The notes below the pieces were generated by a model. The model did no database searches. It saw only the letters and a program-made list of their open reading frames with translations, and was not told the DNA's origin. Shown here piece by piece: positions 459-63,092 of a stretch of DNA of 64,000 nt. The number at the start of each line of letters is the position of its first letter. Positions within the stretch are counted from its first letter, which is position 1. This DNA is from Eledone cirrhosa (Eukaryota), in NCBI GenBank assembly GCA_964016885.1, contig OZ024742.1, positions 312,294,001 through 312,358,000 on the forward strand, in the 5' to 3' direction. The translations under genes were made by a program, and so were the position numbers.

Positions 459-3400
459 ATCATCATCATCATCATCATCATTTTACGTCCGCTTTTCCCT
501 GCTTGCAAGGGTGGGACGGGTCTTATTCAGCACAGCATCTCTCCACTCGTCACGGTCCCTCGTCATCTCCACCGTGAGCTTCAATGATCTGAGGTCTGTT
601 CTCACCACCTCCGCCCATGTTTTTCGTGGTCTACCTCTACCACGTCTTCCTTCAACTGGCATTTCCTGGCACTTCTTCACCCATCGGTCATCCTCCATGC
701 GCATCACATGTCCATACCACCTCAGTCTCCTCTCCCGTACACTACATTCTATCCCTCTCAGACACAGTTTCTCTCTCAACACATTTATGCTGGGTCGTTC
801 ACGCACATTTACACTGCACATCCAACGGAGCATGCTTGCCTCATTTCTCTCCAGCCGTCGCATTTCTTCTGCGGTTGCTGCCCATGTCTCACTACCATGC
901 AGCATCGCGCTTCTCACACAGGCATCATACAACCGGCCTTTCGTACGCAGGGAGAAACCCTTCTTCGTCAACAGAGGAAGCAGCTCCCTAAACTTCTTCC
1001 AACCCGTCCTTATTCTAGATACTATGGCCTCGGAACACCCTCCTCCCTAGGTACCGGAAGCTATCCACCACTTCTATAGCGCCCTCTCGCATTTGAAAAA
1101 TGTGTCTATCAGTGCGACTTCTACTGTCTAATTTCCCTGTACATCTACTGCATACATATTTCTCCCTACCTGTTAGTTTGCCTGCTATCCCGCTACATCT
1201 CTTGTGTACCCAGGACCTACATTGTGTGCATTTTATAGAATTTATGCCAGTTCCTTTTCTGCATATCGAACATGGCCATTTCCCTGACGGAATCAGGGTT
1301 TTGTCCTCTTTTCTACTCATCAACACTTTTTGTCTTAGCTAGATTTACTCTCAGTCCTCTTGCTTCCAACTGCTGTTTCCATAGCCGGAATTTATTCTCT
1401 AGCTCCTCTACTGATTCTGCCATAAGAGCCAGATCGTCAGCATAGAGAAGTTCCCATGGACAGCCAGTCTTAAACTCCTCTGTTATGGCTTGGAGGACTA
1501 TAATGAACAAGAGCGGGCTGAGGACCGAACCCTGATGTACTCCTACTTGTATCTGGAATTCCTCACTAAACTCCATTCCTACCCTGACTTTACTGAGAGT
1601 ACCTCTGTACAAAGTTTGCACTGTCCTTACAAGCCATTCCTCAACACCCAGCTTCCTTAGGGACCACCAGATGACAGATCGGGGTACCCTATCAAAGGCC
1701 TTCTCTAGATCAACAAAGGCTAAGTATAGTGGCTTATTCTTCTCTAAGAACCTCTCTTGCATTTGTCTCACCAAGAAGAGGGCATCTGTTGTACTCTTCC
1801 CAGGCACAAAACCAAACTGCATCTCATCTAGTTTGACCCTTTCTCTAATTAGTTGTGCTAAAATCCTTTCTGCCACTTTCATAACCTGATCTATCAGTTT
1901 TATACCCCTATAATTGCTCCTCTCCAAAGCATCCCCTTTACCTTTGTAGCAATTTATGAGAATACTGCTGCACCAGTCTTTGGGTATGACACCACCATAT
2001 ATAGCCTGATTGATTATGCGTGCAACCAGTTTAGTGCCTACGTCCCCTGATGCCTTCAGCATCTCAGCAACTATTCCCGATGGTCCGGCCGCCTTACCAT
2101 TTTTCATTTCCCTAATCGCCTCTTGGACCCTATATTCGTCAATCTCAATAGCTGGTCCCTCTGTCAGATCTACCAAGGGTAATTTCTCTCTCTCCCATTC
2201 GTTCTCCACATTCATCAGTCTCCCATAATGACATTTCCAGGCCTCCTTTTTCTGGTCATTCGTGACACTAAGTACACCGGCATCATCCCGGACACATTTA
2301 TCACCAACAACATCCTGATTTGCATTGACACACTGCCTTGTAATGTGGAACACCGCACGCCTCTGATCTTCCCGTCGCAGAACATTGGCAAACCTCCTAC
2401 TCTCTGCCTCCCTGCGTGCTAAGTACACCTGACGTCTAGCTTCTCTCTTAGTGGCTGTATATTCTTCCCTACTCCCACCCTTTTTCCAAGCCTTCCATGC
2501 TAGTCTTTTGTCTCTAATAGCCTTATCTACACTGCTGTTCCAACACCAGGTCACTCTCTGTCTGGTTGGAGCTCTGCTCCAGCCACAGGTTTCATCAGTA
2601 GCCTTCAGCAAGTTGTCACGTAAGAACTTCCAGTTATTATCTATGTCATACGTCTCTAAATCGTCTTCTTTTTCGTCATATACATCTTGAAGGGCTTTCC
2701 TAAATTTGAATTTTAGTGAAAGGTCTTTTAGCTTCCAGACCTTTCTTCTCCACACCTTCCTATATGTCTCATTCCATCTCTTGCTTACTGATATATCACT
2801 AACAACTAACCTATGCTGTGGGGTACATTCTTCCCCAGGGTATGCCTTGGTATTAGACACTATCTGCCTGTCCCGCTGCCTAACTAGCAGGAAGTCAATC
2901 TGGCTTATGTGCTCACCAGATTTGTAGATTATTAGGTGATTGGCAGGTTTCTGGAAGTTTGTGTTGCAAATAGTCAATGTACTTGCATCACAAAATTCAA
3001 GAAGTCTCACTCCTTCTTCATTTCTTGAACCGTAACCGTGCCCACCATGTACCCCAGTGTAACCATCCTGGAGCTGTCCAACATGACCATTGAAGTCTCC
3101 TGCTAGCATAACGATGTCTCCGTCCTCTGTCATTGTGGTTGTTTGCAAGAGTTGCTCATAAAAGCAGTCTTTCTCATCTTTGCCTAGGCCTGCTTGGGGA
3201 GCATAGACCGAGATGATTGTCAGTAGTCTCCTACCTACAACTAATCTAAGCTTAATTATTCGATTACTAACTCGAACTACCTCTATTGTCTTATTGATCC
3301 ATTTCTCAGCCAGGAAAATGCCTACTCCCCCTAACCCATCATCCTTACCTACCCAGAATAGCTTATAGCTAAGACGCTTGCCTACGACTAGTCTCGCAGA

Positions 3401-3612
3401 GGCACCTCTCCATCTCACCTCTTGCACGCAGCACACATCCACCTGCCTTCTCTCCAGCATCTCCGCTATTTCAGCAGATCTACCTCTGAGAGTGCCAACA
3501 TTAAGTGTTGCAACTCTGAGATGCGACGTCTTCATATTTTTCTATGCTGTTTTGTTGCTGTGCTGATAAGCTTTTTGGCATTGATACACTGGTTGGATGC
3601 CCTTCCTAACAC
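459..3612 (-). mobile_element. RTE-clade non-LTR retrotransposon (subfamily 1), near full length, two frameshifts
   Basis: Single APE-endonuclease+RT frame split over ORFs 1313-3535, 1015-1326 and 483-971. (ATG)n 3' tail at ~459-482. Flanked by (TA)n with candidate TSD CATATATAT (452-460 / 3612-3620). Confidence 0.93.
483..3535 (-). pseudogene. RTE ORF: APE endonuclease, reverse transcriptase, PHD-like finger and C-terminal domain (frameshifted)
   Basis: APE motifs TLNVGTL, VQEVRW, YAP, GDFNGH, QIDF. RT motifs NYRGIKL, FVDLEKAFDRV, GVHQGSVLSP, LLYADD. Extra A in an A-run near 1327-1331, and a short deletion near 1047 (FRYLG[DKISS]GGG relative to subfamily 2). Confidence 0.92.
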
Positions 3613-5799: not shown

Positions 5800-6210
5800 A
5801 TCATCATCATTGTTTAACATCTATTTTTCACACTTGCATAGGTTAGACGGGTTGCCACATTATGAGACAAGTCAGGTCTGGAGATCACATCTTGCACATA
5901 TGGCTCTGTATTTTGGCTTGGTTTCTACAGCTGGATGCCTTTCCTAAAGCCAACTTCATTACAGTGTGGACTGGATGCTTTTTATCGTGGCATCAAAACG
6001 AGCATCTAACATGGTGGACTGAACACTTTTTGTTATGTCACCAGCACAACCACCATACAGGGTGGACTGGACGCTTTTTGTCGTGACACCAGCAACAATA
6101 TCCTATGGGGTGGATTGGGTGCTTTTTTTTGGTCACCAACATGACCCCCTTACAGAATGGACTGAGTGCTTTTGTTGTTATGGCATTGGGTCAGTATACA
6201 GAGTGGACAA
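5800..6210 (-). mobile_element. Old RTE-tail SINE/non-autonomous fragment with ~6 tandem ~40-bp modules
   Basis: CATCATCATTGTTTAAC..GCATAGGTTAGACGGG..CTGGATGCCTTTCCTAA, then repeated TACAGnGTGGACTGGnTGCTTTTT. Confidence 0.75.
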
Positions 6211-6524
6211 AATACTGCCTCAAAAAGTCTGTCCAGTTTATGTCAGTATTGAAATGATATGATGATTAATATAAATGTTGTGTAAGCCACAAGCATAAAC
6301 ACTTTGTATTTTATCTTAACTAGTTGTCCACACAAATGTACTCTAAGACCTCAGTGTATAACAGTAATATTGTGTAATTAATTAATCTACTAGAAATAAC
6401 AACCAATTCTCCCTCCATCTGTACTCTATCAACAGTTTCCATTTACAAAAATGTTGTCACAAGTCAACCCAGGTTACTGTGCAGTGGGATCAAATCTCAA
6501 ACCATGATGTTGCAAAACAAACAA

Positions 6525-6732
6525 CCCATTAGCATTTACATCACTTTATATATACTTTCTGTATTTTGTGGTAAAGGCTTTACCTCACATAATATCAAAG
6601 CTACAAGATTTTGATGTTATCTATTTTGAGAACAATACCTTAACATCGGTATGAACAGCTGATTACAGCTGGTTTGAACAGAAAGAGGTGAGAGAATTTT
6701 GGTTGGATATGGCTGGTTTAAATGTTAAAGGG
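6525..6732. mobile_element. piggyBac-like TTAA MITE, family A (~210 bp)
   Basis: TIR CCCwTTAGCATTTA...TAAATGyTAAAGGG followed by TTAA; homologous to the other family A copies. Confidence 0.8.
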
Positions 6733-6767
6733 TTAATGATGATACAGTTATATCAGCAGAATTTTAA

Positions 6768-7230
6768 CTCTTTTGTTACAATATTTCTAATGTCTATGAT
6801 TTGCAAATATTTTTTTAAATAATCAAGAATTTGGAGGGATTAAATAATATAACTAACTTTCTCATTAAGCTGTTGTATCGAATATAGCATAAAAGTGTTT
6901 ACTGAAAATTTTGATGGAAGATTTTTAGATGAATATGGTTCCTGATTTAGGCACAAGGCCAACAATGATTTGGTGAGGGGAAAGTTGATTAAATTGATCT
7001 CACTACATTACTGGTGCTTTATTTTATTGGCCCTATAAGGAGAAAACGCAAAGCTAATCTCGGCAGTATTTGAACTCAGAACGTAAAGGGCCGAAACCAT
7101 GCCGAAAGTATGTTGTCCTTTTCTCTACCGATACTGCTAGTCCACTTGCCCCACTTTTTTTTAGATAAACATTTAAAATAAATGGCTTTGTATCATACGA
7201 CCAGTTTCAGGTGGTTTAATATCGAAAGGG
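6768..7230. mobile_element. TTAA MITE family B with nested minus-strand tRNA-SINE (~6938-7150)
   Basis: TTAA-CTCTTTTGTTAC ... ATATCGAAAGGG-TTAA. The internal segment is the reverse complement of the 42181-42375 SINE family. Confidence 0.65.
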
Positions 7231-8595
7231 TTAATATTCTATTATTAAATTTCTCTTGTATATGAAATAAATAAATAGCTCAATAATATAATTAATTAGT
7301 GACCCACATTGTTTTGTTGATTGATTGTACAAAAGGATGTGAGCAAATCAATATATTTCTAGGAGCATCGCAACAATTAATTATAATCATGAATTGGCAA
7401 AATTGTTAGACCAACAGATTAATAAGGCATCCATAGTGCCCCCAGCTTTCTGTACTCTGAGTTCAAATTCTGCTGAGACCAACTTTGCTTTTCATTCTTT
7501 CAAGGTCTATAAATAAAGTACCAGTGCAGTACTAGGGTCAATGTTTTCCTCTATCTCTCTCTGGAAGAAATCAGGTGACAGGGATGGGCACCACTGGTTT
7601 AAAATGCCTAAGACACAGAGCTCCTACAATTCCAACAGTTAAGAGCCCTTTACATTTATCTGTATAATACTAATGTGTGTTTTTTCCAATTATCAAACTA
7701 CTATAACAAAGGTTGTCCTTCTTTGCCTACATATCCCTGGGAGGGTCATAAAGGAAGAGTCCCCACACACGCTTTCCAGATCACATAACAAAGGTTCTTA
7801 CATGAAATTATACTTTTAGATAATAAAATGTGCTTTAACTCTTTTGATACCAGAGCCACTTGAAACTGCCCTTGGTTTTATGATACAAATTAGAAACTTC
7901 CACAACCTTCAATAATGAAAAAGTTAGTTACATACATTACACATTAAATATATATATTTATATATATATATAAAGGTTAAATTTATTGGAAAAAACACAA
8001 CAGCATACATAATATACAGGTAAATATATACATATACACACACACATACACACATCACACAAACACATATATACATATTTACCTGTATTATATCTATGGT
8101 GATGTGTTTTTTTTTTACAATAAATGTAACCTTTTCCTTACCATTTTTCTAAGGAAATACACTACCTATCATTTTCAAATCATTTTGAAAATAATCAAGA
8201 ATTTTTAGATGGACTTTCAAAATAAATTGAAGCATCAAACCATAGAACCAGGTATGTTTTCAGGTAGTGTGGTATATTTTCTCAGCTTGGTGAATTTTAA
8301 AACAAATATAGCATTCCAGAGGCTATGCACATTGTAGTGCAAAGGTGATATGTTAATCTGAACACTAAAAAGTGAGCTTTGGGGAATTATTCTAATACAA
8401 TCAATCATGTTATACTATTTCTACAATCTAATCTGTCAGAAAGGGGTTTGGCAGTTTTCACTCAGATCAGTAATACAAGCACAAATATAGCAAATAGTTT
8501 CACTTCTTAAATACACACAACACTTCAGACTATCATTATTTACATCTTAGTAACCACTACAGCTAAGTAGCTAATGATGTAAGGAATATATATAT

Positions 8596-8937
8596 GGAGG
8601 CACATGGCTTAGTGGTTAGAGCATTGGCCTTGTAATCGAAAGGTTGTGAGTTCAATTCTCAGACCGGGTGATGTGTTGTTTCCTTGAGCAAGACACTTTA
8701 TTTCACATTGCTCCAGTTTACTCAGCTGTAGAAATGAGATGATAGGGACTGCGGTCCCTATCATTCCACTGCAAAGTGGTCGTGGAGGTGCCATGGCAAA
8801 AAAGCACCCAGCACTCACTGTAAATGAGGTTGGTGTTAGGAAGGGCATCCAGCTGTAGAAATCAAGCCAGAATCAGTTCCCGTCCCACCCTTGCAAGCAG
8901 GGAAAAAGCGGACGTAAAATGAAATGATGATGATGAT
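8596..8937 (+). mobile_element. Young tRNA-derived CORE-type SINE with RTE tail (copy A)
   Basis: A box TGGCTTAGTGG and B box GAGTTCAATTC. CORE-like CCTTGAGCAAGACACTT..CAGTTTACTCAGCTGTAGAAATG. The last ~40 nt match the 3' end of the RTE at 481-520. (ATG)n tail, inserted in (TA)n. Confidence 0.9.
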
Positions 8938-26634: not shown

Positions 26635-26932
26635 ATCATCATTTCATTCATCATTTCATTTTACGTCCGCTTTTTCCCTGCTTGCAAGGGTGGGACGGGA
26701 ACTGATTCTGGCTTGATTTCTACAGCTGGATGCCCTTCCTAACACCAACCTCATTTACAGTGAGTGCTTTGCAGTGGAATAATATGGACCCCATTTCTAC
26801 AGCTGAGTAAACTGGAACAATGTGAAATAAAGTGTCTTGCCCAAGGAAACAACATATCACCCAGTCTGAGAATTGAACTCACAACCTTTCGATTGCAAGA
26901 CCAATGCTCTAACCACTAAGCCATGTGCCTTC
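26635..26932 (-). mobile_element. Young CORE-type SINE (copy B, two internal deletions)
   Basis: Reverse complement of copy A; lacks part of the middle and half of the internal hairpin. Confidence 0.9.
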
Positions 26933-26985
26933 ATATATATAATAGACATATATATATATATATATATAATAGACATATATATATA

Positions 26986-27268
26986 TATGCAAATTAGGCT
27001 GCTCAGCCGTTAATTTTCATAAGGAAAGTATATACTTTCGAACGTTCAACTATCTGGCAGATGGGTAAACGGTGCTGATGATAACTAACAAGCTTGAAAC
27101 TAGTACATCGTTCCTGTGTCAGTGTTGAACAAAAAGGTGACGTGGTTGCCTTAACACCGTATGGCATAAATTCAGGCTGTTCAGTTTGTTTACAAACGAA
27201 CAAAGCGGCGTTATATAATAAGCGTCCGCTAAACTGATATGTGCATATATGTATGTGTACCTGTATGC

Positions 27269-27325
<57 letters not shown>

Positions 27326-27440
27326 TGCTACTGTACGTCTGTATACATATATGTATGTACGTGTACATGCATACTTACATTTAAGTAAGTGCCGTACTAA
27401 GAGTGAGAAATGAAATTTCGTTTTCATTTTATTTCAATTT
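26986..27440 (+). mobile_element. Hammerhead-containing non-coding element (~450 bp), permuted relative to 50175-50737
   Basis: Homologous to the 50-kb element with a different start point; inserted in (TA)n. Confidence 0.75.
27068..27112 (+). ncRNA. Minimal type I hammerhead ribozyme motif
   Basis: AACGGTG-CTGATGA-TAACTAACAAGCTT-GAAA-C-TA-G-TA-CATCGTT. 7-bp stem I, palindromic ACTAGT stem III, GUA site, weak stem II. Confidence 0.7.
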
Positions 27441-27450
27441 ATATATAATA

Positions 27451-27898
<448 letters not shown>

Positions 27899-46712: not shown

Positions 46713-48880
46713 GGATGGCGTACTTGCCATCACTGACGCTGATAAGAAGGTAGCTTGGAAGTGTCACTACGAAAGGCTACTAAATGAGGAGAATAAATGG
46801 GAGAAAGACATTCTCCCCCACATCGACCCAATAGAGGGACCAGCAGTGTTAGTCGAAGGTAGTATAATAAGTAAGGCAATCAAAGATATGAAGACGGGTA
46901 ACGCGGCTGGGCCTTCGGAAATAGTTGCTGAGATGCTGAAAGCCTCTGGTACGGTGGGACACACCATGGTCACCCGGATAGTAAACCAAGTCATACAGAA
47001 TGGGGTTGTTCCGAAGGAGTGGCGTAGCAACATCATCATTAACTGCTACAAGGGTAAAGGAGACGCCCTAGATAGGAGTAACTATAGAGGCATTAAATTA
47101 ATCGACCAGGTCATGAAGGTCACGGAAAAAGTAATAGCGCAACTAATCAGAGAGAGAATCGATCTAGATGAAATGCAGTTCAGGTTTGTGTCAGGCAAAA
47201 GTACCACAGACGCGCTTTTCATTGTACCTAGCTAAAAGTAAACCCCTATACTTAGCTTTCGTCGACTTGGCAAAGGTCTTCGACAGAGTCCCCCGTTCCA
47301 TTATCTGGTGGGCTCTTAGAAAACTAGGTGTTGATGAATGGCTTGTGAGAGCTATACAAGGCATGTATAAAGAAACAGTCAGCAAGGTTAGAATTAACAA
47401 CGAATATAGTGAAGAGTTTAGCGTAAAAGTTGGTGTTCATCAGGGCTCTGTTCTTAGCCCCCTACTATTCATTATTGCCCTTCAGGCTATAACAGTGGAG
47501 TTCAAGACCGGCTGCCGATGGGAACTCCTATACGCAGATGATCTAACGCTCATAGCTGAATCAATGGCCGAGCTAGAGAAGAAATTCCAAATATGGAAGC
47601 ACGGCCTAGAATCAAAAGGCCTTAAAATTAACCTGGCTAAGACTAAAGTTCTAGTTTGTAGGAAAGAAAATAAGGGATCGGTCCCTTCCAGGAAATGGCC
47701 ATGCTCAGTGTGTAGGAAAGGCGTAGGTAGAAACTCCATTTTATATCCCAAATGCAAAGTATGGGTGCATAAAAGATGTAGTGGGATCATAGGTAAGCTA
47801 ACTAAGAACATAGATTTTACATGTGGCCGGTGCTCTGGTGCAATAAGTAGCAGCAAGTGCCCACAAAATACTAGCTCTTTCAATTGCGCAGAGGGTTCTA
47901 TAGAAATAGTGGACAGCTTCCGTTACCTGGGTGACAAAATCAGCAGTGGGGGAGGGTGCTCTGAAAGTACAGTAGCTAGAGTCAGAACTGGAAGGAAAAA
48001 GTTCAGAGAGCTTATACCACTATTAGCCGCTAAAGGGTTCCCCCTAAAAATGAAAGGCAGGCTGTATGATGCCTGCATACAAACAGCAATGTTGCATGGC
48101 AGTGAGACCTGGGCATTGTGTGCAGAGGATATACGCAGACTAGAGAGGAACGAAGCTTGCATGCTCCGCTGGATGTGTAATAGTAATATACACGAACGGC
48201 AAAGCATAAACGAACTAAGAGAAAAATTAGAAATAAGAGGGATCAGATGTTGTTTACTCGAGAGAAGGCTACGTTGGTTTGGTCACGTGATGCGCATGAA
48301 AGACGACAGCCGTATAAAAAAGTGCAGGGCAATAAAGATAGACGGTAGCCACGGAGTAGGCAGACCCAGAAAAACCTGGGACGACCTGATAAACTCCGAC
48401 CTCACACACTTACACCTCTCCAAGACAATGTCACTGGACCGAGATCTTTGCCGGTACTCAGTAATAGAGAAGACCCGCCTTACCTAAATACAAAGTAAAA
48501 ACCCACTACAGTCAGTAGGCATCTCTAACAAAATACACCCCCGTCCCACCACCCGCACCCCATCCACACCGCCCCTTTCAATGTAAAGTTATGTTGGTGC
48601 CACAACATCCAGGCCGAAACAAATGAGATCGTGTAGGTGTCACGACAAAAAAACACACAGTCCACGCTGTAATGTGGCCGTGTTAGCAACACGGTAAAAA
48701 CCTCCCAGTCCCACACTGTAAATGTGGTTGGTGTTAGGAAGGGTATCCAGCTGTAGAAAACCCACCAGACAGCCTTATGCGAGCAAGACAACCACTCTTG
48801 CCTCAAGTGGGAAAACTCCCGTCCAAACCCATGCAACCGTGGAACATGAACGTTAAACGATGATGATGATGATGATGATG
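46713..48880 (+). mobile_element. 5'-truncated RTE LINE (subfamily 2), frameshifted
   Basis: RT ORFs 46711-47235 and 47168-48487 (YADD). 20-nt deletion between GTAC repeats at ~47225. Long 3'UTR and (GAT)n tail. Confidence 0.93.
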
Positions 48881-49916: not shown

Positions 49917-50174
49917 TGGTGTTAGGAAGGTCATCCAGCTGTAGAAATCAAGCCAGAATCAGTTCCCGTATGAGCAAGGCATGGTCAGCCGATCGGCTAC
50001 TGCCCACAACAGGACAACCTATCTAACCCATGCTAGCGCGGAAGTACGGATGTAAATCAGTGATGATGATGATGTGTGTGTGTGTGTGTGTATATACCTG
50101 TCTGATATTAACAGACATGACAATAGTACTCTCTTAGCCATAATAAACTATATATATATATATATATATATATA

Positions 50175-50737
50175 CAAACAAACCGAGCATTATAATAAAT
50201 GTTCGGTAAACCGATACGTGCATATATATATATGTGAGCATGTATGTATATATATACATACTACTGTACGTCTGTATACATATATGTATGTACGTATACA
50301 TACATACTTACATTTAAGTAAGTGCCGTACTAAGAGTGAGAAATGAAATTTCGTTTCATTCTATTCCATTTATCGTTTTCGGTGTGCCCGGCCGACTGAA
50401 CTCACTCGATATGCAAATTAGGCTACTCAGCCGTTAATATGCATAAGGAAAGTATATACTTTCAGACGTTCAACCATCTGGCAGGAAGGTATACGATGCT
50501 GACAATAGATAATAAGCTTGAAACTAGTACATCATTCCTGTGTCAGTGTTGTACAAAAAGGTGACGTGGTTGCCTAAACACTGTACGGCGTAATTCGGGC
50601 TGTTTGTAAACCGAGCATTATAATAAACGTTCGGTAAACCGATACGTGCATATATATATGTGTGCATGTATGTATATATATATACATACTACTGTACGTC
50701 TGTATACATATATGTATGTACGTATACATACATACTT
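50175..50737 (+). mobile_element. Hammerhead-containing element with 130-bp terminal direct repeat (unit 428 bp)
   Basis: Direct repeats 50180-50309 / 50608-50737. Decayed hammerhead ACGATG-CTGACAA..GAAACTAGTA-CATCAT at 50493-50535. In (TA)n. Confidence 0.78.
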
Positions 50738-53328: not shown

Positions 53329-53665
53329 TTTCATCATTTCATTTTATGTCCGCTTTTTCCCTACTTGCAAGGGTGGGACGGGAACTGATGCTGGCTTGAT
53401 TTCTACAGCTGAATGCCCTTCCTAACACCGACCTCATTTACAGTGAGTGCTGGGTGCTTTTTTGCCGTGGCACCTCCACGACCACTTTGCAGTGGAATGA
53501 TAGGGACCCCAGTCCCTATCATCTCATTTCTACAGCTGAGTAAACAGGAGCAATGTGAAATAAAGTGTCTTGCTCAAGGAAACAACACACCACCCGGTCT
53601 GAGAATTAAACTCACAACCTTTCGATTGCAAGGCCAATGCTCTAACCACTTAGCCATGTGCCTCC
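53325..53665 (-). mobile_element. Young CORE-type SINE (copy D)
   Basis: Reverse complement of copies A/C. Confidence 0.92.
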
Positions 53666-53843
53666 ATAAATATATACTCACTGTAAATGAGGTTGGTGTT
53701 AGGAAGGGCATCCAGCTGTAGAAATCAAGCCCAAATCAGTTCCGTATGAGCAAGACATGGTTACCTGACCTGGCATTGCCCACACAGGACAACCCGTCTA
53801 ACCTATGCTAGTGTGGAAGAATGGACATGTGATGATAATTATG

Positions 53844-54326: not shown

Positions 54327-54801
54327 CATTCATACATACATACATATATATATGTGTGTTTGTGTTCAAGAAAGTTTCTAATTCTAACATAGCCTCCATT
54401 TATCATGAAGATTTCTCATATGTAAAATTCTATTCCACTCTATCTAAATATATAAACATACACAAACATACATTATACACACACACACACACACACACAC
54501 ACATCTAGTTGTCGAAACGGCCAGAGCGCAGCCGCCAGGGTCCTGAATCTTTTGATATATATATACATATCAAAAGATTCACCCTTTGTGTGTGTGTATC
54601 TCTATATTTCTCTTCCTCTCTTAGTGTGTAATGAGTCCTATAGAAAAGAGAGCCAGTGAGTGTGTGAGAAAGTAGTGTCTGTGTGTGAGAGGGGGGGGGG
54701 GTAGAGGGAGAGAGAGGAAAGAGAGAGAGAGAGATTCATATGTGTAAGAGAGATTTTATGTGTGTGTGTGTGTGTGTGTATGTATATATATATATATATA
54801 T

Positions 54802-57573
54802 AGGGGAACACACAAGCCAGGTAGATTATATCCTTACCAGAAGACGTGACAGAGTGTCTGTTGTAAACACTAAATCCCTCCCCCATGAAGAATGCACCTC
54901 CCAACATAGACTGATAATTAGCGACCTTATAGTCAGGACGAGACGTACTCGACAGCAGAAGAAGACTATCCTCAGGAGGAAAATATGGAAACTAAAGGAC
55001 CCCACAGCCAGAAATAAATTTCAAAGCATATTACTTGATGCTTTCGACAGTAAGGAAGAGCATCTAGAATCGGACAATATAGAGGGACAGTGGGAATTTC
55101 TGAAAGCAAACCTGCTGTTGGCGACAGACGAAGTCTGTGGCTGGAGCAGGCCTGTAGGCAGGAGGAGAGTAACATGGTGGTGGAACAGTAGGGTGGAGGG
55201 GTCAATTAAGGCCAAAAAGCAGGCTTGGAAAGTATGGCGGGATGGGGGAAGTAGAGTAGACTATCAAGTGGCCAGGAGGGAAGCTAGGAGAGAAGTGTAC
55301 TTAGCAAGAAGGGAAGCTGAGGAAAGAAAGTTCAAGCATGTTCTACAACGCGATGACCAAAAACGTGAGGTGTTCAGGATTGCCAGGCAATGCGTCAAGG
55401 AAAACCGTGATATTGTCGGGGAGAAGTGTGTACTTAACGATGATGGCATACTTGCCATCACCGACACTGATAAGACGGTAGCTTGTCACTATGAAAGGCT
55501 ACTAAATGAGGAGAATAAATGGGAGAAAGACAGTCTCCCCCATATCGACCCGATAGAGGGACCAGCAGTGTTAGTCGAGGGGAGTATAATAAGTAAGGCA
55601 ATCAAGGATATGAAGACGGGTAAGGCGGCTGGGCCTTCGGAAATAGTTGCTGAGATGCTGAAGGCATCTGGCACGGTGGGACACACCATGGTCACCCGCA
55701 TAGTTAACCAAGTCGTACAGAATGGGGTTGTTCCGGAGGACTGGCATAGCAGCATCATCGTTAACTGTTATAAGGGTAAAGGAGACGCCCTAGATAGGAG
55801 TAACTATAGAGGCATTAAATTAATCGACCAGGTCATGAAGGTCACGGAAAAAGTAATAGCGCAACTAATCAGAGAGAGAATTGACCTAGATGAAATGCAG
55901 TTCGGGTTTGTGTCAGGCAAAAGCACCACAGACGCCCTTTTCATAGTACGACAACTACAGGAGAAGTACCTAGCTAAAGGTAGGCCCCTCTACTTAGCTT
56001 TTGTCGACCTGGAGAAAGCCTTCGACAGAGTCCCCCGCTCCATTATCTGGTGGGCTCTTAGAAAACTAGGCGTTGACGAATGGCTTGTGAGGGCTATACA
56101 AGCCATGTATAAAGAAACAGTCAGCAAGGTTAGAATTAACAACGAATATAGTGAAGAGTTTAGCGTAAAAGTTGGTGTCCATCAGGGCTCTGTTCTTAGC
56201 CCCCTACTATTTATTGCCCTTCAGGCTATAACAGAGGAGTTCAAGACAGGCTGCCCATGGGAACTCCTATACGCAGACGACCTGACACTCATAGCGGAAT
56301 CAATGGCCGAGCTAGAGAAGAAATTCCAAACATGGAAGCACGGCCTAGAGTCAAAAGGACTTAAAATTAACCTGGCTAAGACCAAAGTTCTAGTTTGTAG
56401 GAAAGAAAACAAGGCGGCGGTCCCTTCTGGGAAATGGTCGTGCTTGGTGTGTAGGAAAGGCGTAGGTAGAAACTCCATTTTATGTCCTAAATGCAAAGTA
56501 TGGGTGCATAAAAGATGTAGTGGGATCACAGATAAGCTAACTAAGAACATAGATTTTACATGTGGCCGGTGTTCTGGTGCAATAAGTAGCAGCAAGTGCC
56601 CACAAAATACTAGCTCTTTCAATTGCGCAGAGGGTTCTATAGAAATAGTGGACAGCTTCCGTTACCTGGGCGATAAAATCAGCAGTGGGGGAGGGTGCTC
56701 TGAAAGTACTGTAGCTAGAGTCAGAACTGGTTGGAAAAGTTCAGAGAGCTTATACCACTATTAGCTGCTAAAGGGTTCTCCCTAAAAATGAAAGGCAGGT
56801 TGTACGATGCCTGCATACGAACAGCAATGTTGCATGGTAGTGAGACCTGGGCATTGTGTGCAGAGGATATACGCAGACTAGAGAGGAACGAAGCTTGCAT
56901 GCTGCGCTGGATGTGTAACAGTAATATACGTGAACGGCAAAGCATAAACGAACTAAGGAAAAAATTAGAGATAAGAGGGATCAGATGTTGTTTACTCGAG
57001 AGAAGGCTGCGTTGGTATGGACACGTGATGCGCATGAAAGTCGATAGCTGTATAACAAAGTGCAGGGCAATAAAGATAGACGGTAGCCACGGAATAGGCA
57101 GACCTAGAAAAACATGGGATGAGCTGATAAACTCCGACCTCACACACTTACACCTCTCCAAGACAATGTCACTGGACCGAGACCTTTGGCGGTACTCAGT
57201 AACAGAGAAGACCCGCCTTGCCAGTAGGCATCTCTAACAAAATACACCCCGTCCCGCCACCACCCCCACCCCATCCACACCACCCCGTTCTATGTAAAGT
57301 TATGTTGGTGCCGCGCCATCCAGGCCGAAACAAATGAGATCGTGTAGGTGTCACGACAAAAAAACACACAGTCCACGCTGTAATGTGGCCGTGTAGGCAA
57401 CACGGTAAAAACCTCCCAGACCCACAGTGTAAATGTGGTTGGTGTTAGGAAGGGCATCCAACTGTAGAAAACCTGCCAGACAGTCCTATGCGAGCTTGCC
57501 TCAAGTGGGACTATCCCCGTCCAAACCCATGCAAGCGTGGAACACGGACGTTAAACGTTGATGATGATGATGA

Positions 57574-58397: not shown

Positions 58398-58442
58398 AGT
58401 CATAGTCCTTTCGTCACACACTCTGTGACCTCTTCAGTGACT
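58398..58442 (-). ncRNA. Minimal type I hammerhead ribozyme motif, core intact
   Basis: Minus strand: AGTCA-CTGAAGA-G-GTCACA-GAGTG-TGTGAC-GAAA-G-GA-C-TA-TGACT. Stems I and II are perfect; CUA cleavage site. Confidence 0.8.
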
Positions 58443-61042: not shown

Positions 61043-61081
61043 GATATATATATATGTATATACATACATATATATATATAT

Positions 61082-61425
61082 GCACATGGCTTAGTGGTTA
61101 GAGCATTGGCCTTGCAATCGAAAGGTTGTGAGTTCAATTCTCAGACCGGGTGATGTGTTGTTTCCTTGAGCAAGACACTTTATTTCACATTGCTCCAGTT
61201 TACTCAGCTGTAGAAATGAGATGATAGGGACTGGCGTCCCTATCATTCCACTGCAAAGTGGTCGTGCAGGTGCCACGGCAAAAAAGAACCCAGCACTCAC
61301 TGTAAATGAGGTTGGTGTTAGGAAGGGCATCCAGCTGTAAAAATCAAGCCAGAATCAGTTCCTGTCCCACCCTTGCAAGCAAGGAAAAAGCGGACGTAAA
61401 ATGAAATGAAATGAAATGAAATGAA
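61082..61425 (+). mobile_element. Young CORE-type SINE (copy E)
   Basis: Near-identical to copies A/C; (ATGAA)n tail. Confidence 0.92.
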
Positions 61426-62990
<1,565 letters not shown>

Positions 62991-62992
62991 AT

Positions 62993-63092
62993 ATACTAGC
63001 TCTTTCAATTGCGCAGAGGGTTCTATAGAAATAGTGAACAGCTTCCGTTACCTGGGTGACAAAATCAGCAGTGGGGGAGGGTGCTCTGAAAG
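62993..63092 (+). mobile_element. ~100-bp internal fragment of RTE subfamily 2
   Basis: Encodes TSSFNCAEGSIEIVNSFRYLGDKISSGGGCSE. Confidence 0.9.

Follow-up and report, generated by a model that had tools for sequence, protein, structure and literature searches.

Metazoan non-LTR retrozymes, known from Acropora, Mytilus and axolotl/newt satellite 2, are short tandem repeats that carry a type I hammerhead ribozyme, have no open reading frame and a GC content below 50%, and are predicted to form highly self-paired circles (Cervera and de la Pena, 2020, PMC7229834). The repeat unit of Eledone cirrhosa described here resembles them in all these respects (GC content of 0.35-0.38), and its hammerhead shares a palindromic loop III with HHR_Amex1 and, with HHR_Amex2, a U.U pair on which helix II stands, both of the same account. 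There are also differences. At 420-516 nt the units lie at or above the retrozyme range of 150-450 nt; strict (TA)n targets, insertions of two inverted arms and a tail are features of the Eledone unit that the available text of that paper does not describe for its retrozymes; and circles and cleavage, demonstrated for the latter, are predictions for the Eledone unit.

Penelope-like elements (PLEs) are the other close relatives. Elements of the Neptune, Poseidon and Hydra types form partial tandems with 5' truncation and an inverted 5' arm (Craig et al., 2021, PMC8557442; Frangieh et al., 2024, PMC11167929), and PLEs bear a tail at one end, occupy (TA)n or AT-rich targets and have a hammerhead upstream of the 3' end (PMC8557442; PMC11167929; Cervera and de la Pena, 2014, PMC4209133). 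The tail is the stretch between two internal reverse-transcription start sites and has been called unique to PLEs, which cut both strands in AT-rich DNA (PMC11167929). These traits recur in the Eledone unit, which differs in having no RT or GIY-YIG open reading frame, in a longer tail (about 60 nt, where published elements have 30-40 nt), and in a short helix II with a palindromic loop III, where the minimal hammerheads of schistosome PLEs have a 7-8-bp helix II (PMC4209133). Chlamys MRC1 is a non-autonomous PLE with pLTRs and multicopy head-to-tail insertions; elements such as MRC1 share their 3' ends with known autonomous families, and the group, unlike the Eledone unit, lacks canonical hammerheads (PMC8557442). 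A 2026 preprint (Li, Clavereau and Pollet, bioRxiv 10.64898/2026.07.22.740005) presents vertebrate retrozymes as non-autonomous PLE derivatives that hijack PLE machinery and occur as monomers, dimers and multimers, much as is proposed below. Its basis, in the text available, is co-occurrence and pLTR homology in Xenopus, with no mollusc, whereas the basis in Eledone is insertion anatomy; no homologous autonomous pLTR turned up among the Eledone loci sampled.

The window is the whole stretch of 64,000 nt that was analysed, and the flagged insertion within it (Table 1) is a decayed copy. Its terminal repeats agree in 126 of 132 columns at an offset of 428, which bears out the direct repeats noted in the sequence-only reading. 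The 428-bp monomer of that reading holds as a repeat spacing, but the monomer of the subfamily measures 442-445 nt: at the unit junction the 29 best genomic matches have about 16 nt more than the flagged copy, lost at 50607/50608, and this private deletion accounts for a spacing of 428 where the family has about 444. A motif descriptor located the hammerheads of both window copies. The flagged core reads CTGACAA (G8>A), and helix II is mismatched and broken, so that the ribozyme, with a predicted cut after GUA at 50529, is predicted to be dead. Mutation of G8 (to C, in the experiment) did away with cleavage when made in a PLE hammerhead (PMC11167929). G8>A is the change to be expected from deamination of the core CpG. 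In all 29 of the best genomic matches other than the flagged copy the core CTGACGA is intact, as it is in array units. An Rfam scan at E<=1 reported no hammerhead; the matches that it gave were to miRNAs and stemmed from the microsatellite.

The second copy matches the flagged one in blocks of 79% and 90% identity (E 2e-80 and 2e-54) and begins near ATGCAAAT (26987), equivalent to 50411 in the flagged copy. The homologous copy that had been placed at 26986-27440, with a start in mid-element, was thus recovered, but it falls in a separate subfamily, of about 472 nt rather than about 444 nt. Nor do the two copies carry the same hammerhead motif, as had been thought, since the G8>A core and broken helix II of one stand against the intact CTGATGA of the other. 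Do they represent two circular permutations of one unit? The different starts are real, but they go with variable 5' truncation and with a short end in the flagged copy and a tail end in the other; two fixed 3' ends and differing 5' truncation explain the apparent permutation without a circle. An octamer has been linked to the promoter of newt satellite 2, a possible parallel to the octamer-like motif near the start of the second copy. TA tracts flank each copy, in agreement with the placement of both within (TA)n, and the stated absence of an open reading frame also stands: none of the frames is credible, the longest Met-ORFs having 41-54 aa, and a frame of 121 aa, which the 27-kb copy has on its minus strand, extends through the TA tract.

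Table 1. Features of the window, by position in the 64,000-nt stretch
Feature	Position	Strand	Remarks
LINE-type RT frame	1313-3541	-	with AP-type endonuclease
SINE-like copies	8586-8930, 26648-26941, 27545-27866, 53331-53675, 61068-61409, 62656-62995		
Second copy, 472-nt subfamily	26985..27442	+	5'-truncated, about one unit, tail end, in (TA)n
Second-copy hammerhead	27071..27109	+	core CTGATGA intact; helix II with one mismatch
LINE-type RT frames	47168-48487, 54689-56764	+	PHD finger after RT in both
Left flank (TA)13	50149..50174	.	piece of target tract
Flagged insertion	50175..50737	+	one 5'-truncated arm of about 1.3 units, short 3' end
5' terminal repeat, pseudo-LTR equivalent	50180..50309	+	hairpin and TATG/CATA microsatellite; 95% identity to 50608-50737
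Tail, about 60 nt between both fixed 3' end sites	50310..50373	+	internal in flagged copy; terminal in about half of genomic arms
ATGCAAAT octamer-like motif	50411..50418	+	retained in most aligned copies
Extended helix I hairpin, hammerhead at tip	50468..50554	+	from alignment and fold
Type I hammerhead	50495..50533	+	4-bp helix II on U.U pair; palindromic CUAG loop III
Unit junction hairpin	50598..50613	+	private deletion of about 16 nt
3' terminal repeat	50608..50737	+	short end, then (TA)n

The genome of 3.0 Gb holds 25,089 exact matches to a 32-letter hammerhead pattern, and none to a control pattern. Family units fall into about ten sequence clusters with periods of 420-516 nt (overall about 420-520) and code for no protein. 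Arms mostly contain one or two units and a few reach about seven; arrays of ORF-less units occur in both orientations, 5'-truncated partial tandems forming pseudo-LTRs are present, and many insertions consist of two arms placed head to head. Two sets of loci were mapped: the first 100 listed matches, from the start of contig C1, which merge into 53 position-ordered loci, and a second set of 30 loci. No published description of the family was found in a search that covered papers on hammerheads, Penelope and non-autonomous elements in octopus or cephalopods. The suggestion of an undescribed family can be kept in this form: the family is real and large and probably undescribed, but its class has been described already, which makes it a useful family and not a new kind of system.

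How do the insertions end? The 53 loci contain 81 arm ends, 42 of them short and 39 with the tail, in two classes about 60 nt apart, and (TA)n follows directly after 73 of the 81; 61 internal passes run seamlessly into the next unit. In 22 of 23 two-arm insertions one arm has the short end and the other the tail end (binomial p 3e-6), a count in which two pairs are one local segmental duplicate and two further end assignments are misclassed damaged ends; the sole exception has its tail cut off, as judged by eye. In the second set the proportion is 10 of 11. By analogy with published PLEs, the pairing is taken to reflect two internal reverse-transcription starts, which is the PLE signature. Target-site duplications are unreadable inside (TA)n targets. 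Fixed termini in all genomic copies had been named beforehand as an observation that would speak against the sequence-only reading, and the termini prove to be fixed by half, the 3' ends lying at two fixed sites and the 5' ends of arms being scattered. Genome-wide patterns gave 514 arm starts per 12-nt window upstream of the core, 623 at the cleavage site and 539 at a control position; these are raw counts without denominators, so the comparison is rough, and among 100 listed starts at the cleavage site about a quarter are small indels (by eye) and five belong to an unrelated repeat. On these counts there is no 5' pile-up at the cleavage site, which argues against linear self-cleaved monomers as the main template. 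A transcription start just upstream of the hammerhead, where five arms cluster, was considered and rejected, the genome-wide count there being no higher than the control.

Very probably the unit belongs among the non-autonomous PLEs, is of the non-LTR retrozyme type, and relies for its copying on an RT/GIY-YIG protein borrowed from a PLE. Tandem loci would be transcribed into RNA longer than one unit; the PLE protein, probably as a dimer, would bind near the tail and nick both strands of a (TA)n tract; reverse transcription would begin at two internal positions, one on either side of the tail, each cDNA would break off more or less at random, and short microhomology would serve to join the pair head to head. 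Seamless arms of several units might derive from an uncut tandem transcript, for which the chances appear about even, or, with a probability slightly below that, from a hammerhead-cut and religated circle copied round more than once, after which duplication at the DNA level may lengthen some arrays. The hammerhead is likely to be of importance in source copies and is probably not required for every insertion. A non-autonomous, (TA)n-targeting, hammerhead-bearing element of Penelope/retrozyme-like character, as first suggested, is thus supported by the lack of open reading frames and by insertion anatomy. Of the tandem or circular RNA template suggested with it, a template longer than one unit survives, but differing starts are no evidence for a circle. 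The enzyme that moves animal retrozymes has so far been proposed from co-occurrence and pLTR homology, and the PLE tail signature in nearly every two-arm insertion is more direct evidence that PLEs mobilise a unit of the retrozyme type.

Does the ribozyme itself leave a trace of selection? An intact copy has a hammerhead-like predicted fold, and helix I is extended and bulged. Given the palindromic loop III, cleavage would be expected chiefly in the dimer. Six natural units folded as circles are 67-70% paired, with z from -7.9 to -10.5 in all six (25 shuffles each), values that are inflated because the microsatellite is self-complementary. Across 41 aligned copies and 48 named pairs, 96.4% of cells are paired, against 30-42% in slid controls. 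Two-sided changes occur in 8 of the 48 pairs (2 of 500 shuffles), one in helix I and six in a downstream hairpin, and covariation is seen in another hairpin if that is read independently of the alignment; the independent events behind these changes are few, because the roughly ten subfamilies are related. Two variants of the core CpG can also be compared. Genome-wide, the tolerated C7>T has 499 matches, a figure that one sub-lineage could inflate, and the lethal G8>A has 199. Among the matches listed, neighbouring units have the variant in common in 17 of 100 cases for C7>T and in 4 of 100 for G8>A (by eye; Fisher p 0.005). Twelve other CpGs in 97 units have no such overall bias (TG 21, CA 30), with single control CpGs as uneven as 5:0 and 1:5. 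These sequence counts provide moderate evidence that source copies need the hammerhead core. Neighbours have G8>A in common in one inverted pair and one tandem pair, and in these two clusters RNA with a dead core may have been copied, so that the need for the core is perhaps not absolute. Low variation of the core columns was set aside as evidence of selection, the loci having been picked by the same motif. Hammerheads with the same loop and other stems gave six matches; the four that were compared grouped with, or were picked up as, copies of the unit, and the idea of separate same-loop families drawn from these matches was rejected.

Is a circle the obligatory template? In a strict retrozyme model, which is a variant of the explanation preferred here and differs from it in the template only, every copy would be made from a monomeric circular RNA produced by hammerhead cleavage and ligation; this is a serious possibility, if one that falls a little short of an even chance. 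Arms cross the cleavage site seamlessly for up to 7 units, but an uncut tandem transcript yields equally seamless arms. Young arms are near-uniform (one internal difference in four units at L147, one private change in six at L178, and likewise at L145), and at L139 each arm is near-uniform while the two differ from each other at about 8 sites; as read from the sequences, such arms fit one template molecule per arm. A circle is further favoured by the apparent selection of the core, by the absent cleavage-site pile-up, which excludes linear cut monomers as the main template, and by the circles that coral, mussel and axolotl retrozymes make (PMC7229834). Other loci point the opposite way. The ABAB array at L166 has a perfect match of about 899 nt with four differences outside it, and is a two-unit duplication at the DNA level, the match being as expected for 842 nt plus a chance extension; a rolling copy of a dimer circle was rejected because the perfect match is confined to that stretch. 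A second alternating array (G000:C1:143288841-143291376) has a core variant every 830-842 nt, that is, in every second unit, like L166. At L141 single units in opposite arms have variants in common, a pattern that one monomer circle per arm leaves unexplained, and the PLE hammerhead is not needed for insertion in vitro (PMC11167929). The Eledone family bears on whether that hammerhead is needed in vivo and on a circular-RNA origin of tandem PLE insertions. Its young copies, more than 25,000 in number, its core variants of the tolerated and the lethal kind and its arrays of nearly identical units make it a good test bed for both.

Could the unit be only the pseudo-LTR, or a truncated 3' end, of an autonomous PLE outside the sample? 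The other hammerhead of the window (58441, minus strand) is a case in point, being the 3' end of a PLE that has an open reading frame, and the genome has 10,596 GIY-YIG candidates, of which 150 were scored. However, what lies past the tail is the next unit and not an open reading frame in the 61 internal passes of the 53 loci, no other upstream sequence recurs among 300 listed 5' junctions, local duplicates aside, and arrays of ORF-less units reach 7 copies and occur in both orientations. The unit was the 3' end of an autonomous PLE in 0 of 80 PLE-ORF loci, and no pseudo-LTR relation to a PLE open reading frame was seen, where inspected, in 136 unit-bearing loci and 40 selected 5'-junction loci, which sample some PLE families only, include no family with an N-terminal endonuclease (Naiad) and in several cases show part of the 3' UTR. 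A pseudo-LTR of this kind is quite unlikely; an autonomous ancestor probably existed, but the copies have spread independently, as units in their own right. It is extremely improbable that the family is a satellite-like repeat spread at the DNA level, by unequal exchange or rolling-circle DNA, with the hammerhead as a passenger. The duplication at L166 and the local duplicates present at L170 are of that nature, but the dispersed insertions, fixed 3' ends, random 5' truncation, (TA)n targets, inverted arms with complementary ends and RNA-type covariation are not, and the end pattern largely refutes a spread of this sort.

If a non-autonomous unit borrows a PLE protein, which PLE provides it? 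Intact RT plus GIY-YIG open reading frames are present in the genome, and a Hydra-like protein with a CxCx5C linker has 68,831 first-look candidates; the clade labels Neptune-type and Hydra-like come from a comparison of linker motifs with PMC8557442, not from a tree. Cephalopod Naiad and Hydra PLEs with (TA)n targets are tabulated in the same paper. In several PLE families of Eledone the ends lie in (TA)n, where a tail may or may not be present, and the hammerheads are built like that of the unit, helix II standing on a U.U pair and loop III being palindromic. The linkage to Penelope RT/GIY-YIG open reading frames that had been looked for did not materialise, none serving as a parent among the sampled PLE-ORF and unit loci: nearby PLE open reading frames are, where inspected, separate insertions or targets, and none runs into the repeat or starts after the tail. 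Two chimeras stand out. At L227/L257 a unit arm with a tail end is joined, head to head, to a 26-nt short end of Neptune type, and at L233 a Hydra-like arm meets a unit arm, short with short. A Neptune-type PLE is the best guess for the driver, from one chimera. A supposed unit/Hydra chimera at L163 was rejected because the open reading frame continues on both sides, and the PLEs at L082, L142, L167, L026 and L072 were rejected as parents, being separate insertions.

Other hammerheads are found around these elements. The one at 58441, unrelated to the unit, lies in the 3' end plus tail of its PLE (58473-58176, minus strand); PLEs of this type have an RT and a GIY-YIG-like C-terminus at L142 and L167, with short and tail ends alike. 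Hydra-like PLEs (L082 2031-3032, L181-L210) have a long AT-rich 3' UTR and their own hammerhead with a palindromic loop. Neptune-type PLE hammerheads at L055, L061 and related loci carry a U3-A8 core variant, one described in schistosome PLEs (PMC4209133). Another tandem family (L177 about 5880-8300, L171 1-1950) has a hammerhead, no open reading frame and a period of 310 nt, and also two arms with short and tail ends in (TA)n; its units look identical within a locus and differ between loci, and its hammerhead has the U.U pair, a 4-bp helix II, an AAYA loop and a palindromic CGCG, with stems different from those of the 420-516-nt unit. A further related hammerhead family is present at L032 (about 2400-2900) and L162 (about 3060-3400), and at the latter its tail end abuts a unit 5' end in the same orientation.

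One might tentatively suppose that several hammerhead families, unrelated to one another (units of 420-516 nt, of 310 nt and others), have radiated in this genome, cut by their ribozymes to give circular RNAs and inserted by PLE proteins through rolling reverse transcription from two internal starts, although this broad reading is more doubtful than probable. If true, it would connect retrozyme circles directly with PLE enzymes, a connection so far lacking, and would mean that selection for transposition in vivo acts on the PLE hammerhead.

The long open reading frames of the window are LINE-type RTs (Table 1), unrelated to the hammerhead unit. A SINE-like, tRNA-headed repeat is young (94-97% identity) and lies next to TA tracts; two inverted copies of it flank the 27-kb unit, and another inverted pair encloses a 1.25-kb palindromic TA/TATG array at 61406-62659.
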